DNA from: Candidatus Beckwithbacteria bacterium GW2011_GWC1_49_16
GTDB taxonomy: Bacteria > Patescibacteriota > Microgenomatia > UBA1400 > CG1-02-47-37
Assembly (NCBI GenBank): GCA_001029675.1
Contig: CP011210.1
Location: forward strand, 517,663-581,662
DNA: 64,000 bases
Reading direction: 5' to 3'
Numbering within the stretch: position 1 is the stretch's first letter; each line of letters begins with the position of its first letter. A program made the translations under genes and the position numbers. This document shows positions 3,032 to 37,900 of this stretch, one piece after another. The notes under the pieces were generated by a model that ran no database searches, was not told the DNA's origin, and worked only from the letters and a program-made list of their open reading frames with translations.

Positions 3032-4054
3032 CTATTTTATCTCGAGAGTAGTTTTGCGGCTTTTTTGGGAGATGCGGTAGACCAGTGCCAGGCTCGCGGC
3101 CGAAGCCAAGTAAGAACTGCCGCCGGCAGAGACCAAGGGAAGGTTGATGCCGGTAACGGGGAGTAACCCCAGGTTCATGCCGACGTTGACGGTAAACTGG
3201 AAAGCAAACAAGCTAAAGACGCCGACGGCCACCAGGCGGCTAAAGTCGTCTTCCTGGGATTTAGCGATGGCCAAGAGCCGCCGCAGAAACAAAAAGTAAA
3301 GAACCAACAACACCAGGGCGCCTACCAGGCCAAAGCTTTCGGCGATGGTGGCAAAGATAAAGTCGGAATGGCGTTCCGGGATAAACGCCAGTTGCGACTG
3401 GCTGCCTCGACCCAGTCCCCTGCCGCTAACTCCCCCGCTGCCGACGGCGATGATCGACTGGAGCACCTGGTAACCGGCGCCCTTGGGATCGGCGAAAGGA
3501 TTCAAGAAAGTTTCGATCCTGGTTTGCTGGTAGGGTTTGAGGTTGAACCAAATTAAAGGACTTAAGATCAAGGCGGCTAGGACTGACAAAAGGAGGCTTT
3601 TTAAGGGTAAGTTTGAAGCGATGAGGATGGCAAGGCCGACGGCAATGACCACCAGGGTACTACCCAGGTCCGGCTGGTTAAAGATCAAAAAAGCCGGCAG
3701 AATCATCAGGCCCAAGTAGTAGAAAATTTTTTTGCCGGCGGCGGCGGCAAAAACCAGAATGAGAACGGGTTTGATGATTTCTGAAGGCTGGGCGGTGACC
3801 CCGACTAACTCAATCCAACGGACGGCCCCTCGGGTAACCTGGCCAAAAATTAAGGGCAAAGTCAAAAAAATTGACGCTAAAACAAAGTAAACCCAAACCA
3901 GTTGGCGGTGGGCGGCCAAGGGGATCCGGTAAACCAACCAAAAAAAGGCCGCTCCCAAACCGATAAAGACAAGCTGGGAGGTGAAAAGGTTTAAGTCGAT
4001 TGAACCCAGAGTGGCAAGGCCCAAGGCGGTAATCATTAAACCCAAGACGATCAT
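3032..4054 (-). CDS. rodA: SEDS-family peptidoglycan glycosyltransferase (RodA-like)
   Basis: Polytopic membrane protein with the FtsW/RodA/SpoVE C-terminal signature 'GSGGVSGRGLGRGSQSQ..FIPE.HSDFIFA...E.GL.G' and 'LP.TGI.LP.VS.GGSS'. Lies outside the dcw cluster, so RodA is preferred over FtsW. Confidence 0.8.
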   Translation of the reverse strand: MIVLGLMITALGLATLGSIDLNLFTSQLVFIGLGAAFFWLVYRIPLAAHRQLVWVYFVLASIFLTLPLIFGQVTRGAVRWIELVGVTAQPSEIIKPVLILVFAAAAGKKIFYYLGLMILPAFLIFNQPDLGSTLVVIAVGLAILIASNLPLKSLLLSVLAALILSPLIWFNLKPYQQTRIETFLNPFADPKGAGYQVLQSIIAVGSGGVSGRGLGRGSQSQLAFIPERHSDFIFATIAESFGLVGALVLLVLYFLFLRRLLAIAKSQEDDFSRLVAVGVFSLFAFQFTVNVGMNLGLLPVTGINLPLVSAGGSSYLASAASLALVYRISQKSRKTTLEIK

Positions 4055-11794: not shown

Positions 11795-12821
11795 AAACTG
11801 ATTTGACTAACTGGTAAAGCCTGTCGGCGCCATCGGTAATGAAAGAAGCTGGTAGCTGGTAGATGGTAGATGGTCGATGGGGTTTGGTTTTGAGCATCAT
11901 GGTGATGGCGTCAAGAAGTTTTTCCCGAGTCAGTCGGTTTTGCTCAATCACCCTGGCTCCAAAATGCTTTTTTAAAAAGAGGGCGTTTTGTTGCTGCTCG
12001 TTTTTTTGAGCTTTGGGGTGGGGAATGAGAACGGCTTTTTTGCCAAACAGCGCCAGTTCGACCACGGTATTGATTCCGGCCCGGGAAACGACCAAGTCGG
12101 CGCGGTTTAAAATTTGACCCACCTCTCCGGTTTCAAACCAACGTTTGAGGCGGTAGTTTTGGACAAGCTTCCGAGGCAGACCGGCTTTGAACCTGACTTG
12201 CTTATTCCAGTCGGACCGGGATTGATTGAGGCCGAATTGGTGAATCACCCGGTAACGGGCCAAAAGACGGGGTAAAAGCGGGGTTAAAACAAGGTTTATA
12301 GTCCTTGATCCTTGGTTGCCGCCGGTAATATAGATAGATGGTTGATGAGAGATCGTCGATGTCAGATGTTTTTTAGCTGCTTTTAATAACTGGCTTCTTA
12401 TCGGGTTACCGGTCAAGACCACTTTGTGCCGGGGAAAATAGTTTTGACTTTGGGGCCAGGAAACGGCGATCTTTAAAGCTAGGGGCGCCAAGAGGCGGTT
12501 GGCTAACCCCGCCTTCATGGTTTGCTCGTGGAGAACTAAGGGAATTTTTAAGCTTACCGCCGCCAAACCCACAGGAACGGCGCTGTAGCCGCCGAAGCTT
12601 AAAACCAAAACAGGACGGTATTTAAGCAAAAGCGCCCGGGCTTTAATCAGGCCAAAAGGGAGTTTAACCAGGCTTAATAGAGAAATCAGCGGCCGGTGGC
12701 GGGAGAAACGGGGCGAGGGGATTTTTTTCCCCAGATAAATCACCCGGTAGCCGGTCAATTTTTCGGCCAGGGCCAAAGCCGGAGTCAGGTGGGTACCGGA
12801 GATAACGATGGTGTCTTTCAT
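11781..12821 (-). CDS. murG: undecaprenyldiphospho-muramoylpentapeptide beta-N-acetylglucosaminyltransferase MurG
   Basis: GT28 signatures: 'VISGTHLTPALALAEKL', 'IYITGGNQGSRTIN', C-terminal 'GINTVVELALFGKKAVLIP'. The track ORF starts at 12992, but the ATG at 12819-12821 (MKDTIVISG) overlaps the ftsW stop as ATGA and gives a normal-length MurG. Confidence 0.85.
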   Translation of the reverse strand: MKDTIVISGTHLTPALALAEKLTGYRVIYLGKKIPSPRFSRHRPLISLLSLVKLPFGLIKARALLLKYRPVLVLSFGGYSAVPVGLAAVSLKIPLVLHEQTMKAGLANRLLAPLALKIAVSWPQSQNYFPRHKVVLTGNPIRSQLLKAAKKHLTSTISHQPSIYITGGNQGSRTINLVLTPLLPRLLARYRVIHQFGLNQSRSDWNKQVRFKAGLPRKLVQNYRLKRWFETGEVGQILNRADLVVSRAGINTVVELALFGKKAVLIPHPKAQKNEQQQNALFLKKHFGARVIEQNRLTREKLLDAITMMLKTKPHRPSTIYQLPASFITDGADRLYQLVKSVCEKA

Positions 12822-13924
12822 TTCTTTTTGGGGCTTAATTGATAACGGGAAACGTTTAGAACCAGTCCCAGCCCGGATAGTGTCGCTATCATGGCCGAAC
12901 CGCCGTAGGAAATCAAAGGCAAAGGCACGCCGGTTAAGGGCACCAAGGCCAGCATGGCGGCGATATTTACCATCACCTGGAGGCCGATCCAACCGGCGAT
13001 ACCGGTGGTAAGTAACCGGGAAAAATCGTCCGAGGCAAAACGGGCTATTTTAAGAATTCTTAGAATCAGGAGGGTAAAAATGACGATCAAGACAGCCGAA
13101 CCGACAAAACCCACCTCTTCGGCGACGATGGCGAAAATCGAGTCGGTGGTGGCTTGGGGTAAAAATTGATATTTTTGCCGGGATTGACCCAGCCCCAAAC
13201 CAAATAAGCCACCGGAGCCGATGGCGATTAACGCCTGGCGGATGTGATAGGAGCTGCCCAAGGGATCAGCACCCGGGTTAAGATAAGTCAAAAGCCGTTC
13301 CCGCCGATAGGCAGAGGAGAAGATCAGGCCCAGGCCGGAGATTGAGCCCAAAACGCCAACGGCAAGAAGATAAAAAATTGGCGCCCCGGAAGCGTAGTAG
13401 ACGATGACGGCGGTGAAGATGACGATCAAGGCCGTGCCCAAATCCGGCTGGAGCATGATTAAAATCAAGACAGCGGCCAAAATGGCCAAAAAACGCCAAA
13501 AAGATCTGGCCAGAGTCAGCCAGGCAGAAAGGTAAATGATCAATGCCAACTTGGCCAGCTCGGTCGGTTGGAGGTTAAACTCGCCAAAAGACAACCAGCG
13601 GCGGGCGCCATGAAACTCACTGCCGACGCCGGGGATTAAAACTAACCCCAAAAGAACCAAAGTCACCAAAATCGTCGGCGTGGCCAGCTTTTTGACCAGA
13701 CGCAAGGGCAAAAAAGCGGCCGCCGCCATGGCCGCCAAACCTGCCCCAATCCAGGTTAACTGAAGTTTTGAAAAGTAGTATTTGTCGTCGAAAATCTGGA
13801 AGGCTTCGACCACCGAGGCGTTGAAAACCATGAGCAAGCCGAAAAAGGTTAAAACCAAAGTCAAACCCAAAAGCATCGGGTCGGGTTTTTTGGCCTTGGG
13901 CGAAACGGTCAGCTTTTTAATCAT
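12818..13924 (-). CDS. ftsW: SEDS-family peptidoglycan glycosyltransferase FtsW
   Basis: SEDS signature 'GSGGLFGLGLGQSRQKYQFLPQATTDSIFAIVAEEVGFVGS'. Lies between murD and murG in the dcw cluster. Confidence 0.88.
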   Translation of the reverse strand: MIKKLTVSPKAKKPDPMLLGLTLVLTFFGLLMVFNASVVEAFQIFDDKYYFSKLQLTWIGAGLAAMAAAAFLPLRLVKKLATPTILVTLVLLGLVLIPGVGSEFHGARRWLSFGEFNLQPTELAKLALIIYLSAWLTLARSFWRFLAILAAVLILIMLQPDLGTALIVIFTAVIVYYASGAPIFYLLAVGVLGSISGLGLIFSSAYRRERLLTYLNPGADPLGSSYHIRQALIAIGSGGLFGLGLGQSRQKYQFLPQATTDSIFAIVAEEVGFVGSAVLIVIFTLLILRILKIARFASDDFSRLLTTGIAGWIGLQVMVNIAAMLALVPLTGVPLPLISYGGSAMIATLSGLGLVLNVSRYQLSPKKK

Positions 13925-15243
13925 AAAGCCTTAACCGCCCGTTTAAACTGGTCACCGCGGTCTTGGTAATCTTTAAACATATTAAAACTGGCTGCTCCCG
14001 GAGACATCAGGCATATTTTACCGACCTGGGTGTATTCATATGCTTTCTTGACTGCTTGAGCCATGGTGTCTACCTCAATCAGCCGGGGTTTATGCTTGGG
14101 CTTGGCATTGAGAATTAATTTTTTAATTGCTTTGCCGGTGTCGGGGAAAAGCATTACTACCGGGATTGAATTTTTGACGACGGCTTCAGCCAACGGTGAT
14201 TGGCCCACTCCCCTATCGTAGCCGCCGACAATGACCGAACCGATTTTCCCGCTCAAAGAGTCTATGGCTTGGGCCGCCGATTGGGGTATGGTCGACAAAG
14301 AATCGTTAATAAAAGTAACCCCTTTGGCTTTGGCGACAAACTCTAAACGATGAGGCAAAGGCTTAAATTTAGAAATCCCCTTAATGATCAGTTCGTTAGG
14401 GAGGCGAAAATACTTGCCAATAATTACCGCCGGCATGATGTTGGCAAGATTAAATCTGCCTAAAAGGGGCGATTTGGCTACCGGAAAAACCGGTTTATTT
14501 TTGTAATAAATAAAACCGTCTTTAACATAACAATCCAATCCCGCTTCATGGTCTAAGCTGAAACTAACTCTTTTTGCCCGGCTTTTGAAAGCAATTCGTT
14601 TAATCCGCCTATCGGAGGCGTTGTATATGAGTATGTCTGATTTTTTCTGAAATTGAGTAATCTTCTTTTTAGCAGCAGCGTATTGCCTGATGTCGGCGTA
14701 ATAGTCCAGGTGTTCTGGAAAAAGATTCAACATCACCGCTACTTCTGGACTTTTGTCAAGGTCGGAGAGCTGATGGCTGGAGATTTCAAATACGGCAAAC
14801 GATTTTGGAGTTAATTTCTCCAAGTAATCAAGCGGAGGCCGACCGATGTTGCCTACCAGCTGGACATTGAATTTTTGTTTTAGGACCGCGGCAATTAAAG
14901 ATGCTGTGGTGCTTTTACCTTTAGTCCCGGTCACGCCGATAATTTTTGCTGGACTCAAATCAAAGAATAATTTTGTTTGGGAAGTGAGTAACGCCTTGGC
15001 CGCAGAGTATTTTTTAATCAATTTAACCGGAATACCGGGGCTACGAATGATGAAGTTGTATTTTTTTATCTCTTTGAGGTAATCGGGGTCATTTTTAACA
15101 TCAAGAATCGCTATCTCGGCTTTAAAATCGATTTGGCGCAGAAGTTTAAGCGTCGATTGGCCTTCTCGACCAAAACCAACCAGGCAGATTTTTTGGCCGG
15201 CGATTATTTTTTTGAGTTTTTTTTGCCACTCATGCATAAGCAA
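13921..15243 (-). CDS. murD: UDP-N-acetylmuramoylalanine--D-glutamate ligase MurD (or L-Glu-adding MurD2 type)
   Basis: Mur-ligase P-loop 'IIGVTGTKGKSTTASLIAAVL', 440 aa, in the dcw position of murD. Confidence 0.85.
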   Translation of the reverse strand: MLMHEWQKKLKKIIAGQKICLVGFGREGQSTLKLLRQIDFKAEIAILDVKNDPDYLKEIKKYNFIIRSPGIPVKLIKKYSAAKALLTSQTKLFFDLSPAKIIGVTGTKGKSTTASLIAAVLKQKFNVQLVGNIGRPPLDYLEKLTPKSFAVFEISSHQLSDLDKSPEVAVMLNLFPEHLDYYADIRQYAAAKKKITQFQKKSDILIYNASDRRIKRIAFKSRAKRVSFSLDHEAGLDCYVKDGFIYYKNKPVFPVAKSPLLGRFNLANIMPAVIIGKYFRLPNELIIKGISKFKPLPHRLEFVAKAKGVTFINDSLSTIPQSAAQAIDSLSGKIGSVIVGGYDRGVGQSPLAEAVVKNSIPVVMLFPDTGKAIKKLILNAKPKHKPRLIEVDTMAQAVKKAYEYTQVGKICLMSPGAASFNMFKDYQDRGDQFKRAVKAL

Positions 15244-16516
15244 GTCGTTTTAATAATTTTTTCTGCGGATCGGTCAAAAATTTATCCTCGCCCCAGGAAG
15301 ATAAGATTTTATGACTTTGCCCTTTACCAACTAAATCCAAACTGGCGATTATTTCTTCTTTAGTGCCGACGCACTCAAACGGCCTAAATTCCCCCTCGCC
15401 TTTCAGTTGCTTAAGTAAAGGTAATAAATCCTGACGCTCAAGCAGGTTTTGCCCAAAAATTTCAACGGTTTTGTCTTTTAAAAACGGATTCAAAAGCACA
15501 TAAACTGACAAACACTTGGGACAGTCTCCGCACCAAACATTTTCTTTTTGACCCCGATTGCAGCTTTTAAAAACAGAGAAATATTGAGGCATTTTGGAAA
15601 AAATTTTAGAAATTTGCATTTCCCAGAGTGGCCTGACGAGGCTGAAGTAATTTAGCGACGCTGAAAGGTACTCTTTGACATAAGCGCGAAACTGCTGTTC
15701 AAATTCCCAAGTTTTTGAATATTGATGGTTGATTGGTTGGCCGAGAAAATTGACGTTGGCTTCCTCGGCGCTTCTCTCGTTAGCGACGATCAGCTGATTA
15801 AAACCAAAAATAGCGCCGACCAACAAACTTAAAAAGCCCAAATTAGCTGAAAAAGGCGTATGGCCATTAAGGTAACCGAAGTCATTAAGTTCTAAAAGTT
15901 TTGGGTCAATTTGCCTTAAAATCGTTATTTTGTCTTTCAGCCCGGCAACTTTCACCACCTCCTTGGCTGCCTGGGTCGGATTAACTAACATTGCCGCCGG
16001 TGACTGACCTAGTTGCTTTAAAACCTCAATCGCCACCACCGAGTCTTTGCCACCCCCAACCATCACTAAACTCCTCTCGGCTGAAAATTTAAGAGTGAAA
16101 GACCTAAATTGTTTATCGCCGGCGCTGACGATCTTGACAAAATCGTTAGCGCGAAAATCAATTTTGTTTTGGAAGAAAAATTCCCCTAATCCTTTTTTTA
16201 ACAAATTAAGCCACCACTTAACCTGATCTGGTGTTAGCTTGCCGGCTTTGATGGTGATTTCCTCTGGACAAGCGGCTTTCCAGTAACTTAACATCTCGAT
16301 TAAACCCAGGTGAAAAACGAGATTGTCTAAAACATTTTTCGGCAGCTTATGGGCGCGACTGCCGGCGCCTTTAATCACAATTTGCGGTCGAAAAACAATG
16401 TCCGGGATAAGCTGAAAATCAAAACTTACTTCTAAATCATCGCCGTCAGCATTCCAGTTAAAGCCGCGATAAACAAACTGCCGGTGTCTCTGGCGCAATT
16501 GGGGCAAAAGGATCAT
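15230..16516 (-). CDS. PP-loop (SGGxDS-like) ATP-pyrophosphatase-family protein with C-terminal Cys cluster, function unknown
   Basis: 'SLVMVGGGKDSVVAIEVL' resembles the PP-loop SGGxDS. C-terminal 'CGDCPKC'. Real start is most likely the ATG at 16514-16516 (MILLPQL...), which overlaps the mraY stop as ATGA; the longer track ORF would overlap mraY by ~290 nt. Confidence 0.6.
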   Translation of the reverse strand: MILLPQLRQRHRQFVYRGFNWNADGDDLEVSFDFQLIPDIVFRPQIVIKGAGSRAHKLPKNVLDNLVFHLGLIEMLSYWKAACPEEITIKAGKLTPDQVKWWLNLLKKGLGEFFFQNKIDFRANDFVKIVSAGDKQFRSFTLKFSAERSLVMVGGGKDSVVAIEVLKQLGQSPAAMLVNPTQAAKEVVKVAGLKDKITILRQIDPKLLELNDFGYLNGHTPFSANLGFLSLLVGAIFGFNQLIVANERSAEEANVNFLGQPINHQYSKTWEFEQQFRAYVKEYLSASLNYFSLVRPLWEMQISKIFSKMPQYFSVFKSCNRGQKENVWCGDCPKCLSVYVLLNPFLKDKTVEIFGQNLLERQDLLPLLKQLKGEGEFRPFECVGTKEEIIASLDLVGKGQSHKILSSWGEDKFLTDPQKKLLKRLAYA

Positions 16517-17544
16517 ATCACCGCTAACCAGACGCCAAAGATGGCCAACATGATGCTGGCTAAATAGGCGCGGTTGACGATTTTTGATTCTTCCCAACCA
16601 ATAAGCTGAAGCCAAAGATGAATTGGGGAAACGGGAAAAACCTTTCTGCCCAGGAATTTCTTGCCAACAAGCTGAACCAGGCTCGATAAGATTTCGGCGA
16701 CAAAAATGCCGCCGATGACGATTAAAGCCATGACTTTGCCTAAAAGCAGGCCGACGACGGCAAAGGTAGCACCAAAAGACAAGGCGCCGACGTCGCCAAG
16801 CCAAATCCGGGCGGGGAAAACGTTAAAGTACAAAAAAGCAATCAGGCTGCCGAGCCATAAAGCCAGGAAAAACGACAAGGGGGTGTCAAGGATCGAAGCC
16901 GACAAATACCAAAAGGCAAACAAAGCTACCATCATCACTCCTGAGGCCAGGCCGTCGAGGCCATCGGTGATGTTGACGGCGTTGGCAAAGGCGACGATGA
17001 CGAAGGCGGCAAAGGGAATGTATAAAAGCCCGAGGTTGAAAACGTTAAAAAAAGGAATGTAGAGGATGTTTATCGTCAGGTTAAAATACAAAAGCGAAGC
17101 GATGGTTAAACCTAAGGCCCATTGGATCAAAAACTTGTGCCTCAAGCGCAAGCCAAAAAAGCCGCTCTTATCAAACTTAAAAAATTTCATAATGTCGTCG
17201 TAGAGCCCCAAAAGCCCAAAGGAAACAAAAGTGAAAAAAATGATGTGGATTTCCTCTTTGATGGGGTAGACGTGGGTGACAAAGACACCCAAAAAACGAG
17301 CCAAAGGAAAAAGCAGGAAAAACAGCAGAGTGACCACCAGGATGACTAAGAATCCCCCGCCGACGGGAGTGCCTTTTTTGTGCCGATGCAGCCGGTCAAA
17401 TATCGGGGTAGGCTTGTCAAAGGCGTCGCGGGTTAACTGCCGTTTGCGGGTAAAACGCAGGCGGTACAACAGGTTGATAAAAGGCACCAGGGCAACCGAG
17501 GTAACGGCGAAAGAAAAGATTAAAAGTCCTAAAAGTAATGCCAT
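16513..17544 (-). CDS. mraY: phospho-N-acetylmuramoyl-pentapeptide transferase MraY
   Basis: Polytopic, with the 'NAVNITDGLDGLASG' catalytic loop. Confidence 0.93.
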   Translation of the reverse strand: MALLLGLLIFSFAVTSVALVPFINLLYRLRFTRKRQLTRDAFDKPTPIFDRLHRHKKGTPVGGGFLVILVVTLLFFLLFPLARFLGVFVTHVYPIKEEIHIIFFTFVSFGLLGLYDDIMKFFKFDKSGFFGLRLRHKFLIQWALGLTIASLLYFNLTINILYIPFFNVFNLGLLYIPFAAFVIVAFANAVNITDGLDGLASGVMMVALFAFWYLSASILDTPLSFFLALWLGSLIAFLYFNVFPARIWLGDVGALSFGATFAVVGLLLGKVMALIVIGGIFVAEILSSLVQLVGKKFLGRKVFPVSPIHLWLQLIGWEESKIVNRAYLASIMLAIFGVWLAVI

Positions 17545-17561
17545 GGGTTGATTATAACCGA

Positions 17562-18584
17562 TTAAAGCTGGCGCTGCTTTCTTCTTAGGTTTTCAAAAAT
17601 GAAAGTGACCCAGTACGTCCATTTTAGGGGTAAGTCGTGGGCGGGCAAATAGTCAACCCTTTCGCCGCCAAAACCTTTTTTAAACAAGGTAACGCCGGCA
17701 AAACGATGCTTAGGGTTGTCGTCCGGGGCAATACCCCAAAGGTTGTAGCGGGTTTTGCCTCTGGCTTTAGCCTTTTTGATCGCCGCCCATTGTAAAAGGT
17801 AAGAAGCGGGCACCTCTCTTAATCGACTTGAGGAACCGGAGTAGTGATAGACGGCTTCGTCCTTGTAAAAAATAAAGAAAGATATGGCTAAAAGCTGGCC
17901 TTGGTAGCTTGCTTTAATTAATTGAATTTGATTATCAGGTTTAAAGGTTTGAAATTGTTTCAAGAGGTATTGTAAGGAAAAAGGAACGAATTTAACCCTC
18001 TTGACCACTTCTGCCTGAAGGTCATAGAGATTTTTGACATCGGCGTCGCTGGCGGACATTTCTATGGCTACACCCATCTTTTGGGCTTTTTTGATCGAGT
18101 AGCGGGTGTTTTTACGCATAGCCCGCAACAGCTCCTCTTCCGATTGGGTCAGATCTAAAACCAGGGTGGTTTCGGCGTGAAGATGCATCGGGGCGCGAAT
18201 AAAGCCCCGTGACTTAAACAGGCGATGATTTTCGGGCGCGTCTTTGAGGTTGGGTCTTACCCTGACAAAGCTGGCCTTTTCTTGAGCGGCGATGTCTTTG
18301 ACGCTTGATAAAAAATGGTCAAAAAACCCCGGCTCACCCCAGGGAATCAGAGGGCCGGCCGGGCACTCAAGATAGGTGCCCCGGCGGGCGGTCTTTTTGA
18401 CCAGTAACGCCACACCTTTTAATTTGCCTTGGCGATAAAAACCCAAGCGAAATACGGCAAAGCCTAAACTTTGATTGAATTTTCCCCAGTTAAAAGAATG
18501 CAAGAAGTTTGATTCTGGGGAATTTAGGACAAAATCTTCCCAGACGTCTTTATTCTCTACAAGTTTGGCGGTTATCTGACTCAT
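17562..18584 (-). CDS. FemAB-family peptidoglycan interpeptide-bridge aminoacyltransferase (FemX-like)
   Basis: 340 aa. N-terminal 'FLHSFNWGKF' and the overall FemAB-like pattern. ATGA-coupled to murF. Confidence 0.6.
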   Translation of the reverse strand: MSQITAKLVENKDVWEDFVLNSPESNFLHSFNWGKFNQSLGFAVFRLGFYRQGKLKGVALLVKKTARRGTYLECPAGPLIPWGEPGFFDHFLSSVKDIAAQEKASFVRVRPNLKDAPENHRLFKSRGFIRAPMHLHAETTLVLDLTQSEEELLRAMRKNTRYSIKKAQKMGVAIEMSASDADVKNLYDLQAEVVKRVKFVPFSLQYLLKQFQTFKPDNQIQLIKASYQGQLLAISFFIFYKDEAVYHYSGSSSRLREVPASYLLQWAAIKKAKARGKTRYNLWGIAPDDNPKHRFAGVTLFKKGFGGERVDYLPAHDLPLKWTYWVTFIFENLRRKQRQL

Positions 18585-19942
18585 AGACTGGCGATTAATT
18601 TTTCCGGAAAACGGCCCTCAAATAAAACCAAGCTTTGGGGGTTGGCTTGGTTTTTGAGTGAAACGATGATTTGGTTAAAATCGGGCGCAAACGAAAGTTT
18701 TTTGGTTTGATCTTTTTTGGCTGCGGCTAAAAATAAGCGGTAAGTGTCTTTTTTGGTAACGGTTACTTGCTTAAAAACAGACAATGACTTATGGGCCAGT
18801 TTCTCATGGATGTCTTTTTTGGCGCTGCCCGTTTCGATGATCCCGGCGGTAACCAGTATTTTGGCCCTGGCTTTTTTGGCTTTGGCGAAGTTGACCGCAG
18901 CCAAAAAACCGGCCGGGTTGGAGTTGTAGCTGTCGTCCAAGATGGTCAGCCCCTTTTCTCCCCGGCGGACTTTGAGAGCGGTTTTAAATGACGGGATGGA
19001 GAAAAGCAGCTTTTTAATCGCCGCCGGTTTCACTTTGAAACGGCGGGCAACGGTGACGGCGGCAGCAATATTTAATTGCTGCCAAGAGCCCAGAAGATTG
19101 GTTTTGAAGGCTTTTTTGGGTTTAGAGTAGAGCCGGACGGGAACGTGATTAGTTTTTTTGGCAAGATCGCGGCAGAACTTGTTGGCGCCGTTGACTACTG
19201 CCAAGCCATTTTTAGGCAGGCTGGCTATGAGTTCGTATTTGGTGGCAAGGAGGTTTGAAAAACTGCCAAACAATCCCAGGTGCTGCTGGTTTATTCCGGT
19301 CAAAACCCCGATTTGGGGGGTAACCAGGCGGCAGATTTTTTGGATTTCTCCCCTTCTGTAGGCACCCATTTCGACCACAAAAACCTGGTGGCTTGGGGAA
19401 AGACGAGTCAAGACGGTTTTGGCCACGCCGACGGCGGTGTTGACGTTGGCCGGCGTTTTTAACACCCGGTAGCGGCCAGCGAGCAGGTGGGCCAAAATTT
19501 CTTTAGTGGCGGTTTTGCCGTAGCTGCCGGTAATGCCGACAACGGTGAGCCGACTGCCTGTCAAGTGGATTTTTATTTTAGCTAAAAAAATTGCCAAATC
19601 GTAAACCAGGCTGGTGGCGGGAGCCAAGAGGGCGACGGAGACGGCGACGCTGACAGGGAGAAGCAAATAAGCCAGCATTGCCGCCCAGAGCCGGTTTTGG
19701 GGAAAAGCGTTCAAAAGGTAAAGAGTAAAGTAAAAGGCAAGGTAAATTAAAAGCCAAACTTTGAGGGTGAATTTGGGGCGGAGTAACCTGTTCGTGGGTA
19801 GGAAATAGGCGCCTGATTCACTGGTAGTTAGAAACTCCCGAAAACGATCGAGGCGGTATTCTTTTAGCTGCCAAAAATAAACACAGCGCAAAATTGCCTT
19901 AAAAACCAAAATGAAATAGATCAGCTTAAAAAAATCGATCAT
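18581..19942 (-). CDS. murF: UDP-MurNAc-tripeptide--D-Ala-D-Ala ligase MurF-like, with N-terminal membrane segment
   Basis: Mur-ligase core 'VVGITGSYGKTATKEILAHLL' and C-terminal ligase domain. The first ~125 aa contain three hydrophobic helices instead of the usual soluble N-terminal domain. Confidence 0.7.
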   Translation of the reverse strand: MIDFFKLIYFILVFKAILRCVYFWQLKEYRLDRFREFLTTSESGAYFLPTNRLLRPKFTLKVWLLIYLAFYFTLYLLNAFPQNRLWAAMLAYLLLPVSVAVSVALLAPATSLVYDLAIFLAKIKIHLTGSRLTVVGITGSYGKTATKEILAHLLAGRYRVLKTPANVNTAVGVAKTVLTRLSPSHQVFVVEMGAYRRGEIQKICRLVTPQIGVLTGINQQHLGLFGSFSNLLATKYELIASLPKNGLAVVNGANKFCRDLAKKTNHVPVRLYSKPKKAFKTNLLGSWQQLNIAAAVTVARRFKVKPAAIKKLLFSIPSFKTALKVRRGEKGLTILDDSYNSNPAGFLAAVNFAKAKKARAKILVTAGIIETGSAKKDIHEKLAHKSLSVFKQVTVTKKDTYRLFLAAAKKDQTKKLSFAPDFNQIIVSLKNQANPQSLVLFEGRFPEKLIASL

Positions 19943-20658
19943 GGTTTATTTTCACCAAAAAACTGGGCCAGGCGGGAAGCAACTTTTCTGGGGTGGGCAA
20001 AGGGCAGATCGTGAGTCGCTTCGGGGAAGACCTTTAAAGTGGCGTGGGGCATCAACTGGCGCATTTTTTCTCCGTCTTTTAGGGGAGTCATTTTGTCTTT
20101 GCCGCCCCAAAGGATCAAGGCGCCGTGGTAAATGTGGGGCAGGTGGCGGGTTTGGTCTTCGCGGGTGACTTGGGCTAAAGTCTGCTTCATCAAGGGCGAA
20201 GCGGTAACATAATCAGATTCGTTGGCCACTCGGTAGATTAATTTTTGGGCCGGGGAAAAAAACCGCTTGAAACCGGGAAGTTTAAAAATCAGCTTGCCGG
20301 ATTTAGCCAAAAGCCAAAAGAGGCTTCTTTTGAGACTCACGGGGGGCCTGACGCCGGCGCTACTGACCAAAACCAGTTTTTTGACCTGGTTAGGGTAGTG
20401 ACGGGTAAAATAAATGGCAATTTGGCCGCCGAAAGAATGACCGACGAGGTTGACCCGGGTTAAACCCGAGGCTTTCAAAAATTCCCTGACCCAGTCGGCG
20501 TAGTTGGCGGTATTCCAGGGCTTGCCTATGGGACCAAAAAAGCCCGGGAGTTTAGGCAAGTAAACCTGAAATCCTTTGTGCTTAAGAAAGCTGATCATTT
20601 TTTCCCAGCGCTGACGCTTGCTGCCCCAGCCGTGGAGAATGACGATTGGCAACGGCAT
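19939..20658 (-). CDS. alpha/beta-fold hydrolase
   Basis: Nucleophile elbow 'LVGHSFGG', HG oxyanion 'VILHGWG', C-terminal His 'ATHDLPF'. Confidence 0.75.
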   Translation of the reverse strand: MPLPIVILHGWGSKRQRWEKMISFLKHKGFQVYLPKLPGFFGPIGKPWNTANYADWVREFLKASGLTRVNLVGHSFGGQIAIYFTRHYPNQVKKLVLVSSAGVRPPVSLKRSLFWLLAKSGKLIFKLPGFKRFFSPAQKLIYRVANESDYVTASPLMKQTLAQVTREDQTRHLPHIYHGALILWGGKDKMTPLKDGEKMRQLMPHATLKVFPEATHDLPFAHPRKVASRLAQFFGENKP

Positions 20659-20662
20659 AGTT

Positions 20663-21643
20663 TCAAAACAAACTGATAATGGTTTGGGCCAGAGTTTTCG
20701 GGTCGTGGCGGAGTAAGCTTCTTTTGAGCTTGTCGCTTGAAGGTTTCTGGTAGGCGGAATTTGCCAAGAGCTGTTTTCTGACCACCCGACGGTCGGCGGC
20801 TAAGTCGTCAGCCACCGGGTATTCGCGGTATTTAGCATAAGCCTCGATGATGCTTTGGGGCACAGCCTGGCTGTTGACCACAATGTGGTCTAAGCTTTTG
20901 CCGGCGTAGCGCTCGATTTGGCCAACGTGATGAGAGGCGGCAAAGCCCCGAGTTTGGCTATTTAAAGTCATCAGGTTGACCACGTAGACCAGCTTGGCGC
21001 GGGAGGCCTTGATGGTACTCTTGGTTCCGGAAATAACCAGGTTGGCGATAATGCTGTTGAATAGATCGCCGGGGGCAAAAATGATCACGTCGGCCGAAAC
21101 AATCGCCTCTCTGGCTTCGGGATTGAGGCTGGCCCGGGGCCGGGTGTAAAGCCGGGTGATGGTTTCGTTCGGTTTCAGCTTCTGGGTTTCTATCTGATGT
21201 TCAGAAACGATGGTCCGGCCGGTTGAATACTCGGCGACGAGTTTGACCAGTTTTTTAGACACGGGCAAAACTTTGCCTCTTAATCTAAAGATCTTGGCGG
21301 CGGCGACAACTGCTTCCGGTTCAGAGCCGGTCAGGTCTTCCATGGCGGTTAAGAGTAAGTTGCCCAGATTGTGGCCCTTTAAACCCCGGCCCTTGTCAAA
21401 GCGGTACAACAAGAGTTTACGCAACTGGCCGTTTTCCGGGGCCAGCGCGGCCAAGCACTGGCGCATGTCGCCGACGGGCAAAAAGCCGAATTCGTCACGC
21501 AGCCTGCCGGTCGAACCGCCGTCGTCGGTCACCGGCACGATCGCCGTTAACTCCAAGGGGTATTCCTTGAGGCCAGTCAGAAGTACAAAGCTACCGGTCC
21601 CCCCGCCGATGACCACTACCTTTTTGGGCCTTTTTTTAGCCAT
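20663..21643 (-). CDS. YvcK/CofD-family (UPF0052, gluconeogenesis-factor-like) protein
   Basis: 'KKVVVIGGGTGSFVLLTGL' and 'VPVTDDGGSTGRLRDEFG' boxes. Start moved to the ATG at 21641-21643 (MAKKRPKKVVVIGGG); the longer track ORF (to 21775) would overlap the convergent + strand gene. Confidence 0.75.
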   Translation of the reverse strand: MAKKRPKKVVVIGGGTGSFVLLTGLKEYPLELTAIVPVTDDGGSTGRLRDEFGFLPVGDMRQCLAALAPENGQLRKLLLYRFDKGRGLKGHNLGNLLLTAMEDLTGSEPEAVVAAAKIFRLRGKVLPVSKKLVKLVAEYSTGRTIVSEHQIETQKLKPNETITRLYTRPRASLNPEAREAIVSADVIIFAPGDLFNSIIANLVISGTKSTIKASRAKLVYVVNLMTLNSQTRGFAASHHVGQIERYAGKSLDHIVVNSQAVPQSIIEAYAKYREYPVADDLAADRRVVRKQLLANSAYQKPSSDKLKRSLLRHDPKTLAQTIISLF

Positions 21644-21674
21644 GGCTATATTGTACTTTATGTGGCAAACTTTG

Positions 21675-21683
21675 TGGTATAAT
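21675..21683 (+). promoter_or_regulatory. extended -10 element (TGgTATAAT) upstream of + strand ORF 21721
   Basis: tttgTGgTATAATcgcc, ~38 nt before the ATG. No good -35, which extended -10 promoters can tolerate. Confidence 0.4.
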
Positions 21684-21720
21684 CGCCAATGCTCCTGCCT
21701 AAAATGACGCTTTTTAAAAT

Positions 21721-22266
21721 ATGGCAACTCCTCAGATAGAACTGGACACGACTCAATCGCCGCTGGTTGAAACAATTCACCGGCTGGGATTTCTTTACAA
21801 CGGCTTGATCAATTCTCACAACACCAGAAAATTTGGCTATATCCCAACCAGAGCCGATGGTTATGCTTTTGCGTCGCTACAAGCGAGGGTATCCGATCGG
21901 GAGTGGAAACCGCTGGCGACGTTTGTACTCGGGCCCGAACCGGATAAAGTTGACTTAATCATCGAAACCATATCTCCTAATGAGGGTGAAGTGTCGCGAT
22001 ACGTTGCTTATAACGAGAATGGGGAAATGGTACTTGACTCTGACAACAGCAACCCCGACTACAAAAAAGCTTTCCCTACCCCAAAGGGAGACCTCGATGT
22101 AAAAAAAGCCAAAGCCTGGCTGGAACAGTTCGAGATGGTCAGGTCTAACCAGCTCCCAAAGAGAATCAATATGCCTGGCGTGGTTGAAGAACTTGAAACA
22201 ACTTTGGCTCAAGGAGTCGTGAGCGTCGGTGGCTTCTTTGCTGCGGTTAGAGAGCAAGCAGTTTAA
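21721..22266 (+). CDS. hypothetical protein (181 aa), opposite strand to surrounding operon
   Basis: ORF with its own promoter-like element. Convergent 20-nt overlap with the HAD gene. No motif recognised. Confidence 0.45.
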   Translation: MATPQIELDTTQSPLVETIHRLGFLYNGLINSHNTRKFGYIPTRADGYAFASLQARVSDREWKPLATFVLGPEPDKVDLIIETISPNEGEVSRYVAYNENGEMVLDSDNSNPDYKKAFPTPKGDLDVKKAKAWLEQFEMVRSNQLPKRINMPGVVEELETTLAQGVVSVGGFFAAVREQAV

Positions 22267-32012: not shown

Positions 32013-34928
32013 TCAGGATTTGGCCTTAGCCCACCTGTCCCGATAGATAAAGTAAAGCAGGCCGGCCGCTAAAAGAACGATCACAGTCATAACCGCCGGG
32101 GAGAAAAAGGGGTTTTGGGGTTTGACGGCTACGGTGATGTTGAACTCTTTCACTTCCCCCTCAAGGTCAATTTTCTCTTCACCCTTGAAGTTTTGGTAGG
32201 CGATTTCCACCCGATGCTCGCCCGGTTCAACCCCGGTGAAGGTAGCAATGCCGTCTTGGTTGGTTTGACTTTGTTTTGGCTCGGAGTAAAGGGTAACTTG
32301 AGCGCCAGCGACCGGATTTTTATCGCTATCCACCACCTTGATATTGACATTGTAGCCTGCCTCTTTTACTGCTTGCTTTTCTTCTTCGGTTTCGGCCGGT
32401 ACGGCTTCTTCATCAATGATTTGAGTTTTCATTTGGTTTGGAGCAAAAATTCCCCCTACCGCCTGGTTGACTGAGAGATAAAATGAAGTGGTCGAGCTGT
32501 TGTTGCCTTTGTCGTAGGCGGTTAACTCTGCCTGGTAGTAGCCTGTAGGCAAACTTTGGTCGAGGCCAAAATCAAAGCGGGTTGACTTAAGATTTTCTGA
32601 ATCGGTAAAGCCGGTCAACTTAAGCTCCTTTTCCAAATAATCGACAAAGTTTCCGGAAGCGTCTTGGAGCTTGAGTTTGAAGATTAACTGGTCCGGCCCG
32701 GAGGCGACTTTATCAAAAGTATCGGTGGTGCCGTCTGAATTGGTGACGCTTGAACCTCGGTAGGCATCGACCAAGTTGCCGCTTAAAGTTAGATTGTGAC
32801 TGCTAAGAACGACTTTCTGACCCGAAGCGTTAACTAGAGTGCCATTAACCGCTAGTTCTGCCAAACTCGGCGCAGTAAGATCGACCAAGACATCCGCGGC
32901 TTTAGTACGAGTGTCGGAGCTGACACCAGTGGCGGTCACCTGCCAAGAATGTTTACCTTCTGATAAAGCTTTTTGGTTTAGGCCTTTGAAAAAGACTTTA
33001 AACTGGTCGCTTAATTCCTCCGCTAAGTTGACGATGTCGACTTTAACGCTGGTGTCGTCCCGAAAAGTATAGTTGGTAGCCGAAGTGCCAGCGGCAGGCA
33101 AACCGCCGACCGAGTAGCGCTGATGTTTATCAGGGTCTAATGCTACCGAATAGGAAGAAATGGCTGATGAATCAGCCGAGGCTTTAAAGCTCAACGTCGG
33201 CTTAGTATCGTTGGTAAAGCCGGAAGGCGAGATTGGCTCAAAGATGGCAGCCACGGTAAAGCCATCGGAAGCGTAAAGACTGGCAGCGGCGTAGGCGTCG
33301 CCAGAGTCAAAACTCCTGACATAAATGGTGTGGGCGCCGGCCGAAAGGCTACTTAAGTCGCAACTAAAGCCCTCGGGTGAACCGTCGAAGCTGCCGTCGG
33401 TAGCCGAGCAAGAATTCCAAGTACCGGTGGTGGTGCTTGACGTGCTCCACTGGACGCCGGAAACAGCCACCCCGTCGGAAACCGTGCCGGTGAGTTGGGG
33501 AGTGGTGTCTTCGGTGATAGTAGTGTCAATAAGAGTAATGGCCGGCGAGCCGTGGGTAATCTCAAAAGCGTAAACTTGACCGGCAACCCCGGTGCCATTG
33601 CCGCCATAGATCGAGCTGACAAAAACTTCCTGCCAGCCGTCGTTGTCCATATCGCCAAACCAAACCACGTGGCCCAAGTTTTGGTTGGTAGTAGGGGTGG
33701 CTAAATCTGCCGAAGTAAAAGTCAAATCAGCAGTGGTATCAATAGTGGTACCGTCACTTAAAAAAATGTGAAATTGGCCCTCGTCGGAGCCGTCGATTTG
33801 ATAGGCTCCAACTATCAAATCTGTGTTGCCGTCGGAGTTGACGTCGTGCATCGCTAATTCCCGACCAAAGTTATCGTTGGCAGCGGCGCCGGAAAAAATA
33901 ATGTCAGCGTCGGTGGCATCATAAGTGGCACTCAAAGAACTCGAGCCCAAGAAGCAGTAGACCCGGCCGGCATTGGTGGCCGAAGTGTCGTTTAGGTAGG
34001 CGCCCAGGCAAAAGTCGGCTTTACCGTCCTGGTTGATGTCGCCGGTCTCGCCCGACGACCGGGTAAAGTTTTCGGTGGTGGTCTCGCCGGTGATGGTGAT
34101 GTCAACATCTCCGTTCATGGAGGAGCCGCCGTAGAAAATGTGAATCGTAGCTTGATCGCTGTAGTCTTCCCCAACCAAAATATCGTCGGCGCCGTCGCCG
34201 TTAACGTCTCCGGATACAAGTAGATCCTGGCCAAGCTTGTCAGAACCGGCCACAGCCAAAGTGACATCGGCAGTGGTGTCAAAGGTTTGGTCGCCGTCGC
34301 CGTAGAAAACCCTGACGTCGCCGGCGCTACTACTGGCTCCTTGAGCCGCAAAGGCAATATCCTGGTTGCCATCGGCGTTAAAATCGCCGGTGGTGATCGT
34401 GGAGCCAAATAAGTCGTTGGCGGTGGTGTTAGTAATGGTAATATCGGCTTCTGTGGCTGCGTCAATGGAGCTAGCTAACGAACTGGAACCAAAAATGATG
34501 TAAACCTCTCCGGCGTTTAAGGCGCCATCATCGTTAGAGGCGCTGCCAATAATCAAGTCGTCAGCTCCGTCGCCATCGATGTCAGTGGCCTTGTAGTTGT
34601 TGACTTGAATCAAATTGTCGCCCATGCTACCGGTGCCAGAATTGGTGATAGTAAGATCAACGGTGTCGTCAAAAGTAGCGCCCCCATAAAAAATATATAT
34701 TTTCCCCTTACCCGAAGCTGCTTGAGGGGCAGTAGCGATTAAATCTTGGTAGCCGTCACCGTTTAAGTCGGCGGCCATGACGTTATTGCTGCCAAAATAG
34801 GAATTATTGACCGTGTCGCTAGTGGTAACCACGCCTAACTCGGTCATGCCTAGGGCTAAAGCTGTTTGAGGCAAAAGTAAAAATAACAAACTGAAAATCA
34901 ACCAATAGAAAAACTTGTTCGAAATCAT
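32013..34928 (-). CDS. large secreted/surface protein with FG-GAP (integrin-alpha-like) repeats, Cna-B/CarboxypepD_reg-like domain and C-terminal TM anchor
   Basis: Signal peptide MISNKFFYWLIFSLLFLLLPQTALA. At least 7 repeats of type DLNGDGYQDLI / DIDGDGADDLIIG / DVNGDGADDILVG. C-terminal 'VKVVDSDKNPVAGAQVTLYSEP...GVEPGEHRVEIAY' followed by a TM helix and basic tail. Confidence 0.75.
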   Translation of the reverse strand: MISNKFFYWLIFSLLFLLLPQTALALGMTELGVVTTSDTVNNSYFGSNNVMAADLNGDGYQDLIATAPQAASGKGKIYIFYGGATFDDTVDLTITNSGTGSMGDNLIQVNNYKATDIDGDGADDLIIGSASNDDGALNAGEVYIIFGSSSLASSIDAATEADITITNTTANDLFGSTITTGDFNADGNQDIAFAAQGASSSAGDVRVFYGDGDQTFDTTADVTLAVAGSDKLGQDLLVSGDVNGDGADDILVGEDYSDQATIHIFYGGSSMNGDVDITITGETTTENFTRSSGETGDINQDGKADFCLGAYLNDTSATNAGRVYCFLGSSSLSATYDATDADIIFSGAAANDNFGRELAMHDVNSDGNTDLIVGAYQIDGSDEGQFHIFLSDGTTIDTTADLTFTSADLATPTTNQNLGHVVWFGDMDNDGWQEVFVSSIYGGNGTGVAGQVYAFEITHGSPAITLIDTTITEDTTPQLTGTVSDGVAVSGVQWSTSSTTTGTWNSCSATDGSFDGSPEGFSCDLSSLSAGAHTIYVRSFDSGDAYAAASLYASDGFTVAAIFEPISPSGFTNDTKPTLSFKASADSSAISSYSVALDPDKHQRYSVGGLPAAGTSATNYTFRDDTSVKVDIVNLAEELSDQFKVFFKGLNQKALSEGKHSWQVTATGVSSDTRTKAADVLVDLTAPSLAELAVNGTLVNASGQKVVLSSHNLTLSGNLVDAYRGSSVTNSDGTTDTFDKVASGPDQLIFKLKLQDASGNFVDYLEKELKLTGFTDSENLKSTRFDFGLDQSLPTGYYQAELTAYDKGNNSSTTSFYLSVNQAVGGIFAPNQMKTQIIDEEAVPAETEEEKQAVKEAGYNVNIKVVDSDKNPVAGAQVTLYSEPKQSQTNQDGIATFTGVEPGEHRVEIAYQNFKGEEKIDLEGEVKEFNITVAVKPQNPFFSPAVMTVIVLLAAGLLYFIYRDRWAKAKS

Positions 34929-37900
34929 GTCTTTTTTAGTTTAAGCAACTTTTTCAGCCTTTTCAAGTTGAATCCGATAATTAACGTCAAACCAGTCACT
35001 CCCAAGACTCGCCAATCGGCAAATGGGTTTTGCGGTTTGATTTTGATGGTCAGTTCAAACTTTTTCACTTGGTCGCCAGTCAAGTCAACTTTTTCCTCCC
35101 CGATTTTATCTTGGTAGGAAATTTTGATGGTGTGACTACCCGGTTCAAGACCGATAAAGCTGGCCGTACCGTTATTATCAGTGACGGCGGTTTTGGGGTC
35201 GGAAAAAACCGTCACCACCGCTCCTTCGACGGGTTGGTTTTGGCTGTCAACCACAATGATATTCAAGTCGTAACCTTGTTGCTTTGAACTAAAATCAGCC
35301 GGGGTGGTTTTTTCGCCCACGATCTCGGTTTGAAGTTGGCTGATAACGGTATTGACCCCGCCCAAACCTGAGCTAAAAGTGGTGGCGGAAACTATGTTGC
35401 TGGTGGGGCTACCAGCACATTCGTTGAAGGCTCTTAAAACAAAGTAGTAGCGCCTACCTGGCTCAAGAGATGAAACGGTAAACGAGGTAGATTGAGCGTC
35501 ACCTATCTGGCCGGCAGAATAAGAATAATTATCAAGCTCGGCGCCGTACTCTAAAAGGTAGTGACTGATGGTGCCGGTGCCAGGAGTAAAATTGAGGCTG
35601 ACTGATGAGGCGGAATCGGCGGTGGCTGAAGTCAGGGTCGGAGCCGACGGCGCGCCTGCAGAGCAGGCCCTAGAGACGGTTTTGGTGAGGTTGTCGATGG
35701 TAAAGGTAGCCGAGGCGTAGTTGGCTTGAGCGGTGTAAGACTGGTTGACGTCACCGACTTTGATATAAACTGTGTGAGCCCCGTCGGAAAGATTAGTAAC
35801 GTTACAAGAAAAGTTTTCGGACTTAGAGTTGAAACTGCCATCATCGGCACTACAGGCAACCCAGCCTCCGGAAGCCGAGTTACTATCCAACTGGTAGCTG
35901 ACGCTATTGATATTGGTAATCGAATTGCCGGCGGAAATAGAACCTTTTAAAGTCAAGGAGTTGCCGGAAAACGACGTCGGCACAGAACTTAGGCTGGTGG
36001 TATGGGGGAAGTTGTAAATTACATAAGCCGAACCAGAATCGGTCCGGGAATTATAGTCAGCACCATAGGCGCCGACCAAAAGGTCTAAAGAGCCATCACC
36101 GTTCATGTCCTCTAGTCCCAGGCTGTTGAAAGAAAAAATGTCAATGGCGTTGGCGCCGTCGTAGCGCAGGTTATAATTGTTGGGGTCTGACAAAGAAACG
36201 ACATTGGCGGTGCCGGTGTAGTCGTTAAAAAGATCGTTATAGATAATGTAAAACGACCCGGACCGATCGATGCTGTTGTTGCTCGATCTTCTGGCCGGAA
36301 AAATAAAGTCTAATAAACCATCGTTGTTGAAGTCTAAAACATGAAATTCCGATTCAACCAGAAAAGTACCGTCTTCTGTAGAAGCGGGTCCGTCGTAGCG
36401 AATGTTGTAGTTAGTCGAGGTAGCCATATCAATGATGTTGCCGGTACCGGTGTAGTCGTCGATTAAAGAATCATAAACAATATAGAGTGAGCCAGATCCC
36501 CATGAGGTATAATTGCCAGCCGAAGTGGCGGAAATTAACAAGTCGTTTTTGCCGTTGTTGTCGACGTCGACCACCAGGTCGTTTTCGTGGGAAAACAAAG
36601 CATCACTCTCGGCACCATCGTAACGGAGGTTAAAGTTATCCGTGTCGGATAAATCGACAGTGTTGCCGGTGCCGGAGTAGTCGTCAATCAAGCTGTTATA
36701 AATCACATACAAAACGCCGTTGTTGCTCCGACTCTGGGTGTCGGCCAGGTAAGCGCCGATAACCAAGTCCTTTTTACCGTCGTTGTCGACGTCGCCTACC
36801 TCCAGGCCGATATTAGATAATTTGTCGCTGGCGGCAGCGCCGTCGTAACGAATATTAAAGTTATCCGTGTCAGCCAAATCGACGATGTTGCCGGTGCCGG
36901 TGAGCGAGGAGTTAAAAATGCTATTGTAAATAACATACAAAGATCCCGAATCGGAGCGGGAGTTATAGTCTGTTAGCCCAGAACCGACGATAAGATCCAA
37001 GAGGTTGTCGTTGTCAAGATCCTTGGCTAGAAAAGCCCCGTGAGATAAGCCGTTACCACTGGTAGCCCCGTCAAAACGAAAAGTAAAGTTGGCAGTGTCA
37101 GATAAATCGACAGTGTTACCGGTGCCGGTGTATTTGGTAATCAGTGAATTGTCAAAATAGTAAAAAGCCCCAGAATCGGTGCCGTTGGTGCCGTCAAAGG
37201 CTACAGAACCTACCAGTAGATCCATATCACCGTCTTGGTCGAGGTCAACTGGCAACACCGATCTGGCCCCCAACTGATCGTCACCGTCGACGCCGTCGAA
37301 ACGGATGCTGTAGCTTGATGACTCGTTAAGGTCAAAGGTATTACCGGTGCCAGAGTAAGTGGCCAAAAGCGAACCATAAATAATATAAAAAGCGCTGTAG
37401 CTACCCGTCGCGTCAGAAGCGACCACAATCAAATCCTTGAGGCCGTCGCCGTCGAAGTCGGCGGCCTTGACGTCGCCCCAGCCGGTGTAGCTTAAGGCGT
37501 TGGCGCCGTCAAAGCGCAAGTTAAAGTCGGTGGTGTTGCCCATGTCGTAAGTTTTACTGGGAGAGGTGGTGACCGAGACGTCGTAATTAATCGTCAGGCG
37601 AGGTCTTTTGGGGGCGATCAAGTTTCCCGGAGTGTAATCGGCGGCATAAAAGTCCATACAGTTACCGTTGGATTCGGTTTCGGCTTTGACCAAAAAGCCG
37701 TAGTTGGTGGCCGAATTATCCAGCCACCCCTGAACTATCGCCACCCCCGAAGCGTTTAAGCTAAGGGTGATGTAGCCAGCCGAGCCGTCGGTGACCGATC
37801 CGCTAGCCAACAAGGTTGAGTTGTAGTCTGTATCGGCAGTAGACAGACCGGCCGACCCGGCCCAGTTGGTGGTGTTGTGGGCTAATTGATCCCAAGTAGG

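Follow-up and report, generated by a model that had tools for sequence, protein, structure and literature searches.

We analysed a stretch of 64,000 nucleotides from Candidatus Beckwithbacteria bacterium GW2011_GWC1_49_16, a member of the candidate phyla radiation (CPR) (contig CP011210.1, positions 517,663 to 581,662; hereafter the window, with positions counted from its first nucleotide). A gene between mraY and murD in this window is very probably an orthologue of murL, and together with the adjoining ligase of the MurD2 type it would provide the alternative route by which D-glutamate enters the peptidoglycan precursors. In that pathway, discovered in 2017 and since reviewed, MurL depends on ATP and Mg2+, yields AMP and works in one direction, from L to D (PMC8788868, PMC5808125). 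The finding itself is already known, since the pathway was published in 2017 and the exact window protein is named MurL in UniRef and covered by the Pfam MurL domains. Its remaining value lies in a gap in the GenBank annotation, in an annotation of the partner ligase that probably gives the wrong stereochemistry, in a spread of the family that is wider than the literature says and in a mechanism that can be tested.

Scanning the protein with the NCBIfam model NF041275 (MurL_Xanthmoales) returned a match with an E-value of 8.7e-82 and 275 bits, pairing residues 9-399 with model positions 5-396 of 447. Precomputed matches place both MurL domains of Pfam, PF26299 (MurL_N) and PF26298 (MurL_epimerase_C), on the exact protein (both E<=1e-5), and the same two domains are present in 120 of 120 homologues among the matches listed. 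UniRef names the protein UDP-N-acetyl-alpha-D-muramoyl-L-alanyl-L-glutamate epimerase; GenBank names it a hypothetical protein (AKM79328.1). The GenBank label, which most CPR homologues carry as well, constitutes an annotation gap and arises because the NCBIfam equivalog cutoff of 700 bits appears to be specific to Xanthomonadales. In a calibration of NF041275, ten MurL homologues from other phyla (Pseudomonadota, Actinomycetota, Acidobacteria, Rokubacteria, Omnitrophota, Bacteroidales, Nealsonbacteria and Minisyncoccus, a cultured CPR bacterium) all scored between 200 and 281 bits. As homologues from other phyla reach just this range, the cutoff appears to delimit Xanthomonadales and not the whole MurL family, and by its profile score the window protein is no less MurL-like than other members from outside Xanthomonadales. 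An earlier note on this DNA, made from the sequence letters, had tentatively proposed MurL-family membership; the near full-length NF041275 match, the two Pfam domains and the UniRef name bear that proposal out.

The protein also has features that would suit a housekeeping PP-loop enzyme (QueC, TilS, LarE or ExsB) sitting by chance in the dcw cluster, namely a PP-loop motif and a QueC-like cysteine pattern. A Pfam scan run without the MurL models gave matches to QueC and DUF6395, both sub-threshold. The QueC match scored 18.3 bits against a gathering score of 22 and covered 56 of the 428 residues (281-336, corresponding to QueC profile positions 140-200), and the same profile scan gave no match to TilS, LarE or ExsB. 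The earlier note had named a full-length hit to one of these families as one result that would overturn its proposal, and the QueC match is neither full-length nor above threshold. Given that the MurL model matches nearly the whole protein, and that the family keeps its linkage and fusion to Mur enzymes across loci (see below), we consider a housekeeping enzyme exceedingly improbable and retain the assignment to MurL.

The coordinates of the gene and of its junctions are given in Table 1. Public gene calls give 428 aa for the MurL protein and 438 aa for the MurD encoded downstream. The sequence across the mraY-murL junction is GTGATATGATCC, and that across the murL-murD junction is TTGCTTATGCATGAG. 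The murL/murD overlap is 8 nt when murD begins at the ATG used by the public 438-aa call; an alternative TTG start at 15243 would lengthen it to 14 nt. We rejected a 524-aa version of the MurL protein that begins at TTG 16804, as given by the open reading frame (ORF) lister: its extension lies inside mraY, and the N-termini of homologues align with the ATG at 16516. The gene is genuine and is no chance ORF, as it has thousands of homologues and as conservation reaches at least 95% at about 60 positions in 81 sequences from many phyla. The earlier note had described the locus correctly in each respect. Its ~429-aa ORF between mraY and murD corresponds to 428 codons and a stop codon, read on the minus strand, the ATGA coupling to mraY and the overlap with the murD start can both be read in the sequence, and its motifs VMVGGGKDS and CGDCPKC fall at residues 151-159 and 329-335.

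The partner ligase, which is the sole MurD of the dcw cluster in the window, carries residues that point to L-glutamate as its substrate. Mutagenesis of MurD2 from Xanthomonas oryzae has shown that E197 and R358, equivalent to D182 and K348 of E. coli MurD, set its specificity for L-Glu; the E197D/R358K double mutant is a D-Glu ligase, and the K319T variant of E. coli MurD gains the use of L-Glu (PMC8788868). We aligned 71 full-length MurDs encoded beside MurL to E. coli K-12 MurD and compared them with five canonical D-Glu MurDs of solved structure (E. coli, P. aeruginosa, A. baumannii, T. maritima and S. agalactiae), after verifying the mature E. coli numbering by the landmarks K115, H183, K198, K348, S415, L416 and F422. 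The window MurD contains Glu175 and Arg342 at the two published L-Glu determinants and Leu314 in place of the Lys319 equivalent (Table 1). Judged by these residues, it is of the MurD2 type at every position known to matter, and the MurD2-type substitutions that the earlier note had suggested looking for are present. Read through the E. coli numbering, the window protein has the same Glu and Arg as X. oryzae MurD2 at the E197 and R358 positions and a Phe at F435 (E. coli L416); it differs in having Ala for Pro at P433 (E. coli A414), a residue reported to have no effect on stereospecificity. With 327.8 bits, the window MurD still clears the 212-bit cutoff of TIGR01087, the general murD equivalog model, and public records name it a D-glutamate ligase even though its specificity residues point to L-glutamate. 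All MurL-linked MurDs probably share both this model match and this name, in which case the mis-annotation of stereochemistry would be systematic.

Reviews report the MurD2/MurL route as confined to "relatively few bacterial genera" (PMC8788868, PMC5808125), and mention MurL orthologues only in Gamma- and Alphaproteobacteria and actinobacteria, with others of low similarity in cyanobacteria, a fungus and an amoeba (PMC5808125). A word-indexed search with the window protein found 5,491 homologues at E<=1e-5 among 8,000 scored candidates. Exhaustive searching of 50%-identity cluster representatives yielded 2,532 clusters at E<=1e-3, 1,191 of them at E<=1e-30, and a scan of one genome per species returned at least 592 genomes with MurL relatives. 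The MurL family is thus far wider spread than the reviews say: it reaches no fewer than 592 species-level genomes, and its members fall into about 2,500 clusters when grouped at 50% identity. Our comparisons of loci used the best 80 of the relatives in these reference genomes (at least 592); none of the 80 is from Xanthomonas, and the best is 51% identical to the window protein. They include many lineages of Patescibacteria, among them the cultured Minisyncoccus archaeiphilus, as well as Bacteroidales, Acidobacteria, Rokubacteria, Methylomirabilia, Omnitrophota, Pseudomonadota and Actinomycetota. In the literature library that was searched, no paper was found tying MurL or MurD2 to CPR, Patescibacteria or Beckwithbacteria, nor any relevant paper on glutamate racemase in CPR; most other occurrences of "MurL" seem to be misprints of MurI or unrelated words. 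The wide distribution bears on the proposal of MurD2/MurL as a narrow-spectrum antibiotic target.

Examination of the 80 loci revealed MurD downstream of MurL on the same strand in 73. The order found in the window, mraY-murL-murD-ftsW(-murG), recurs in 18, all of them of the Patescibacteria type. For the other seven (L004, L007, L024, L048, L071, L073 and L075) the retrieved flanks contain no MurD, and in at least one of these, L024, MurL lies close to the end of the contig. MurL and MurD form one open reading frame in four of the 73 loci (L002, L006, L058 and L074). Fusion-sized proteins of 740-1250 aa make up about 30 of the top 150 MurL cluster representatives, and all ten of the long representatives that were scanned with family models were fused to cytoplasmic wall-precursor enzymes. 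The arrangements comprise MurL-MurD, MurD-MurL, MurE-MurL (P0141), MurB-MurL (P0162) and MurL-MurD-amidohydrolase (P0258), with P0121, P0124, P0136, P0184, P0249 and P0260 as the other fusion representatives; they are read from family models only, and some could be artefacts of assembly or gene calling. These proteins provide independent evidence of the Rosetta-stone type suggesting that MurL acts on UDP-MurNAc-peptide intermediates next to MurD.

In Bacteroidales and related metagenome-assembled genomes (MAGs) the murL-murD2 pair was found without mraY, ftsW or murG within 6 kb, and hence outside the dcw cluster (loci in Table 1). Within the window, GC content falls to 41.5-43.5% over exactly the murL-murD pair (positions 14000-16400), compared with 47-56% in the flanking wall genes. 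The pair could have been acquired or replaced as a two-gene module, which is consistent with its position outside the dcw cluster in the Bacteroidales loci.

MurL has been described in reviews as lacking known conserved domains (PMC8788868, PMC5808125). We built an AlphaFold2 model of the window protein on 26 diverse homologues, obtaining a pLDDT of 94.7 and a pTM of 0.93. The model is divided into an N-terminal alpha/beta domain (approximately residues 1-130), a central Rossmann-like domain and a C-terminal helical region; the first strand of the central domain runs into the GGGKDS loop and the helix that follows (Table 1). Surveying the PDB with Foldseek returned top matches that were all PP-loop enzymes, namely MJ0690, TtuA, MnmA and NMN synthetase, of which MJ0690 (3k32) was the best with an E-value of 1.6e-4, a probability of 1.0 and a target-normalised TM of 0.51. 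The MurL-family profile in turn matches the PP-loop segment of TtuA PH0300 (E 1.8e-5), and the [GS]GGKDS loop is conserved in 81 of 81 MurL sequences, with G155, G156 and D158 present in every one. No MurL structure turned up in the PDB, which was searched both by sequence and by profile. On the strength of the AlphaFold2 and Foldseek matches, the profile match to TtuA and the invariant loop, the core of MurL is predicted to have the fold of the PP-loop ATP pyrophosphatases (adenine-nucleotide alpha-hydrolases), which would place it in that superfamily. Both the fold and the profile evidence thus agree with the earlier note, which had reasoned from the motif that this was a PP-loop adenylating enzyme.

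The resemblance to other PP-loop ATP pyrophosphatases (TtuA, MnmA, MJ0690, NAD/NMN synthetase and QueC) consists of a loop of the SGGxDS type that follows the first strand in a Rossmann-like domain and of the formation of AMP and PPi by adenylation of a substrate oxygen. It is limited to the central ~150-200 residues of MurL (Foldseek E-values of 1.6e-4 to 1e-2). Unlike these enzymes, MurL has an N-terminal domain of its own (~1-130) and a C-terminal helical domain, and the outcome of its reaction is stereoinversion and not substitution of the activated group. Outside the loop, the cysteines C319, C329, C332 and C335 are invariant in 81 of 81 MurL sequences, and the motifs LNGHTPF, NHQYSK and SCN are also invariant. 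We take the C-x9-C-x2-C-x2-C pattern of these cysteines to be akin to the zinc site of QueC, alongside the weak Pfam match to that family, and speculate that the cluster binds a structural metal as in QueC. With the PP-loop core, the invariant GGKDS and five invariant cysteines, the family offers concrete residues for mechanistic tests.

PP-loop enzymes adenylate an oxygen of their substrate and release PPi. This chemistry fits the published ATP-to-AMP reaction of MurL, for which one ATP is required and an alpha-carboxyl adenylate has been proposed (PMC8788868). In the pathway that we envisage, MurD2 would ligate free L-Glu, and not D-Glu, onto UDP-MurNAc-L-Ala, as its diagnostic residues suggest; MurL would then invert the Glu, and MurE, encoded in the same window, would extend the product. 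Within MurL, the GGGKDS loop would bind ATP and the alpha-carboxylate of Glu would be adenylated with release of PPi. Adenylation would acidify the C-alpha proton and so permit inversion by a base of the enzyme, and hydrolysis of the acyl-adenylate would yield the D-product and AMP, making the reaction one-way. The invariant residues H219, K268, E247, E273 and C382 are speculative candidates for acid/base or acyl-transfer roles.

A PP-loop enzyme at this locus might instead carry out another carboxylate-activating change of the stem peptide. One such change would be to amidate the alpha-carboxylate of Glu at the expense of ATP and so form iso-glutamine, much as NAD synthetase, asparagine synthetase or QueC act on their substrates. 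MurL shares its PP-loop fold and motif with amidating and nitrile-forming enzymes, the weak QueC-like match lies around the Cys cluster, and the CPR members of the MurL family are known from sequence alone. However, this same family, as defined by Pfam and NCBIfam, includes proven epimerases from two distant phyla (PMC8788868), and the window protein scores like its other members from outside Xanthomonadales. In addition, the L-Glu determinants of the partner MurD make sense only with an epimerase following it, and no glutaminase or amidotransferase partner is adjacent. We regard amidation as very unlikely, and epimerisation by MurL as the probable activity.

There is also a broader reading, in which MurD2/MurL would be the standard means of installing D-Glu across much of CPR, hard-wired in the dcw operon as mraY-murL-murD2-ftsW, and would be common in further, largely uncultured lineages such as Bacteroidales MAGs, Acidobacteria, Rokubacteria and Omnitrophota. 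As a corollary, MurL would adenylate its substrate as a PP-loop enzyme and would possess a Cys4 metal site like that of QueC, with the invariant Cys382 in a catalytic role. We consider the truth of this combined reading an even call. If MurD2/MurL is the standard route in CPR, these reduced genomes need no pool of free D-Glu, and thousands of "D-glutamate ligase" annotations carry the wrong stereochemistry.

Several points weigh against the assignment of the window pair to the MurL/MurD2 route. The window protein reaches 275 of the 700 bits of the NF041275 equivalog cutoff, which sets it apart from the characterised MurL enzymes, although that cutoff appears to be specific to Xanthomonadales; the epimerase and L-Glu ligase roles of CPR MurL and MurD2 are predicted from sequence. 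The connection to the characterised X. oryzae enzymes runs through the NCBIfam model and through the equivalences to E. coli residues that the review provides, and the roles proposed above for the cysteines and the acid/base residues are speculative candidates. In favour of the route, no MurI-type racemase and no D-amino-acid aminotransferase was detected among the ~58 largest ORFs scanned in the window, which contains almost the whole precursor pathway; this result for murI and dat applies to these 64 kb of the genome. A last point against is a window gene of the aspartate-racemase subfamily, some members of which are described as Asp/Glu racemases.

This last gene raises the possibility that MurL and MurD2 are redundant or conditional: were the racemase-type enzyme also to supply free D-Glu that MurD could use, MurL would be neither the sole nor an essential source. 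The racemase-family protein is full length and exceeds the cutoff of TIGR00035 (asp_race) with 140.8 bits against 93.1; its public annotation is aspartate racemase, and its best relatives in the PDB are aspartate racemases together with "aspartate/glutamate racemase" entries (3ojc, 5hqt). On the ligase side, an Arg at the K348 position also occurs in S. agalactiae MurD, which is a D-Glu enzyme. Against this, the protein scores just 20.1 bits with the glutamate racemase model NF002035, whose cutoff is 328, and its match to the MurI structure 1b73 has an E-value of just 5e-5. It shares A-N-[ST] with PH0670 (2zsk), in the segment "viPANSvh", and the cysteine of "aCTElg" is present; the CuyB cysteate racemase model gives 104 bits, which is under its cutoff. 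The gene overlaps no wall gene and instead overlaps that of an Ldh_2-family dehydrogenase, for which the best model is L-sulfolactate dehydrogenase (214 bits, under cutoff). Going by these profile scores and relatives, the racemase-family protein belongs to the aspartate/broad-specificity subfamily and is no canonical MurI. Moreover, two features of the window MurD favour L-Glu, namely a Glu where E. coli has D182 and the absence of a counterpart to Lys319, and murL is embedded and translationally coupled in the essential dcw operon. We consider redundancy unlikely and prefer the reading in which the MurL/MurD2 pair installs D-Glu. The earlier note had held that a canonical murI combined with a D-Glu-type MurD would speak against its proposal; the racemase-family gene is not such a murI.

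The canonical source of D-Glu, MurI glutamate racemase, serves the same end as MurL, in that it supplies the D-Glu for the second position in the stem peptide. Unlike MurL, it is cofactor-free, acts reversibly on the free amino acid and has an unrelated fold. The window protein resembles the characterised MurL enzymes in belonging to the same family, in being encoded beside a MurD-like ligase and in its similar length (428 aa compared with the 447-position model). It differs from them in its host, a CPR bacterium outside the genera listed in the reviews, in the insertion of its gene into the dcw operon, where it overlaps the stop of mraY and the start of murD, and in a shorter C-terminal tail, the match to the model ending at position 396.

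Table 1. Features of the murL locus and of related genes in the window, diagnostic MurD positions, and loci with the pair outside the dcw cluster
Feature	Position	Strand	Description
murL	16516..15230	minus	428 codons + TGA stop (ATG 16516-16514, TGA 15232-15230); from translation, profile matches and AlphaFold2 model
mraY-murL junction, ATGA overlap	16513..16516	minus	murL ATG 16516-16514, mraY TGA 16515-16513
murL-murD junction, ATGCATGA overlap	15230..15237	minus	murD ATG 15237-15235, murL TGA 15232-15230
PP-loop G154-G-G-K-D-S159	16040..16057	minus	follows strand 149-152, opens helix 157-168
Cys cluster C319-x9-C329-x2-C332-x2-C335 (SCN...WCGDCPKC)	15512..15562	minus	putative QueC-like metal site
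Cys382 in PFECVGT motif	15371..15373	minus	invariant in 81/81; candidate catalytic residue, speculative
murD	13921..15237	minus	438 aa; probable MurD2 (L-Glu) type, from TIGR01087 and alignments to canonical MurDs
MurD position E. coli D182	codon 14715-14713		window Glu175; MurL-linked MurDs 70 Glu, 1 Asp (L006 fusion); canonical 4 Asp, 1 Thr
MurD position E. coli K319	codon 14298-14296		window Leu314; MurL-linked MurDs 0 Lys, all Leu, Ile or Gln; canonical 5 Lys
MurD position E. coli K348	codon 14214-14212		window Arg342; MurL-linked MurDs 71/71 Arg; canonical 4 Lys, 1 Arg
MurD position E. coli A414			window Ala416; MurL-linked MurDs Ala, Pro, Ser, Thr; E. coli Ala
MurD position E. coli L416			window Phe418; MurL-linked MurDs mostly Phe or Tyr; E. 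coli Leu
mraY	16513..17544	minus	Pfam Glycos_transf_4 and TIGR00445; upstream of murL in the same operon
Aspartate-racemase-subfamily gene	42443-43147	minus	PF01177 E 1.8e-35, full length; 26 kb from murL
Ldh_2-family dehydrogenase	43140-44132	minus	overlaps the racemase-family gene by 8 nt
Bacteroidales/Bacteroidota loci with murL-murD2 outside dcw			L029, L037-L040, L042, L045, L048-L058, L060-L061, L063-L068, L070-L076, L078-L079

The surroundings of murL form a super-cluster for wall synthesis on the minus strand, in which glmS, glmU, murA-G and mraY are all present. Its genes are mraW, a penicillin-binding protein (PBP) gene, murE, glmU, murC, murB, murA, glmS, murF, a FemAB-like gene, mraY, murL, murD, ftsW, murG and ftsQAZ. 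The FemAB-family gene (17562-18584, minus) lies between murF and mraY and matches Pfam FemAB with an E-value of 1.4e-42 and FemX weakly; it is a further non-canonical member of the dcw cluster, and the same layout is seen in L001. Its presence in the operon suggests a branched or cross-bridged stem peptide. An alpha/beta hydrolase gene (19939-20658) lies directly upstream of murF, together with a CofD/YvcK-like gene (20663-21775). Two very long minus-strand ORFs (32013-34928, 971 aa, and 34925-38317, 1130 aa) are placed between murE and the PBP gene, well inside the cluster; they contain FG-GAP, fibronectin-III and carboxypeptidase-regulatory-like domains, and their products are presumably surface proteins. 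The window also contains two genes of the FtsW/RodA family, at 12818-13924 and 3032-4054, both on the minus strand; one is in the dcw operon, and the other lies downstream of an Ile/Val-type tRNA synthetase gene.

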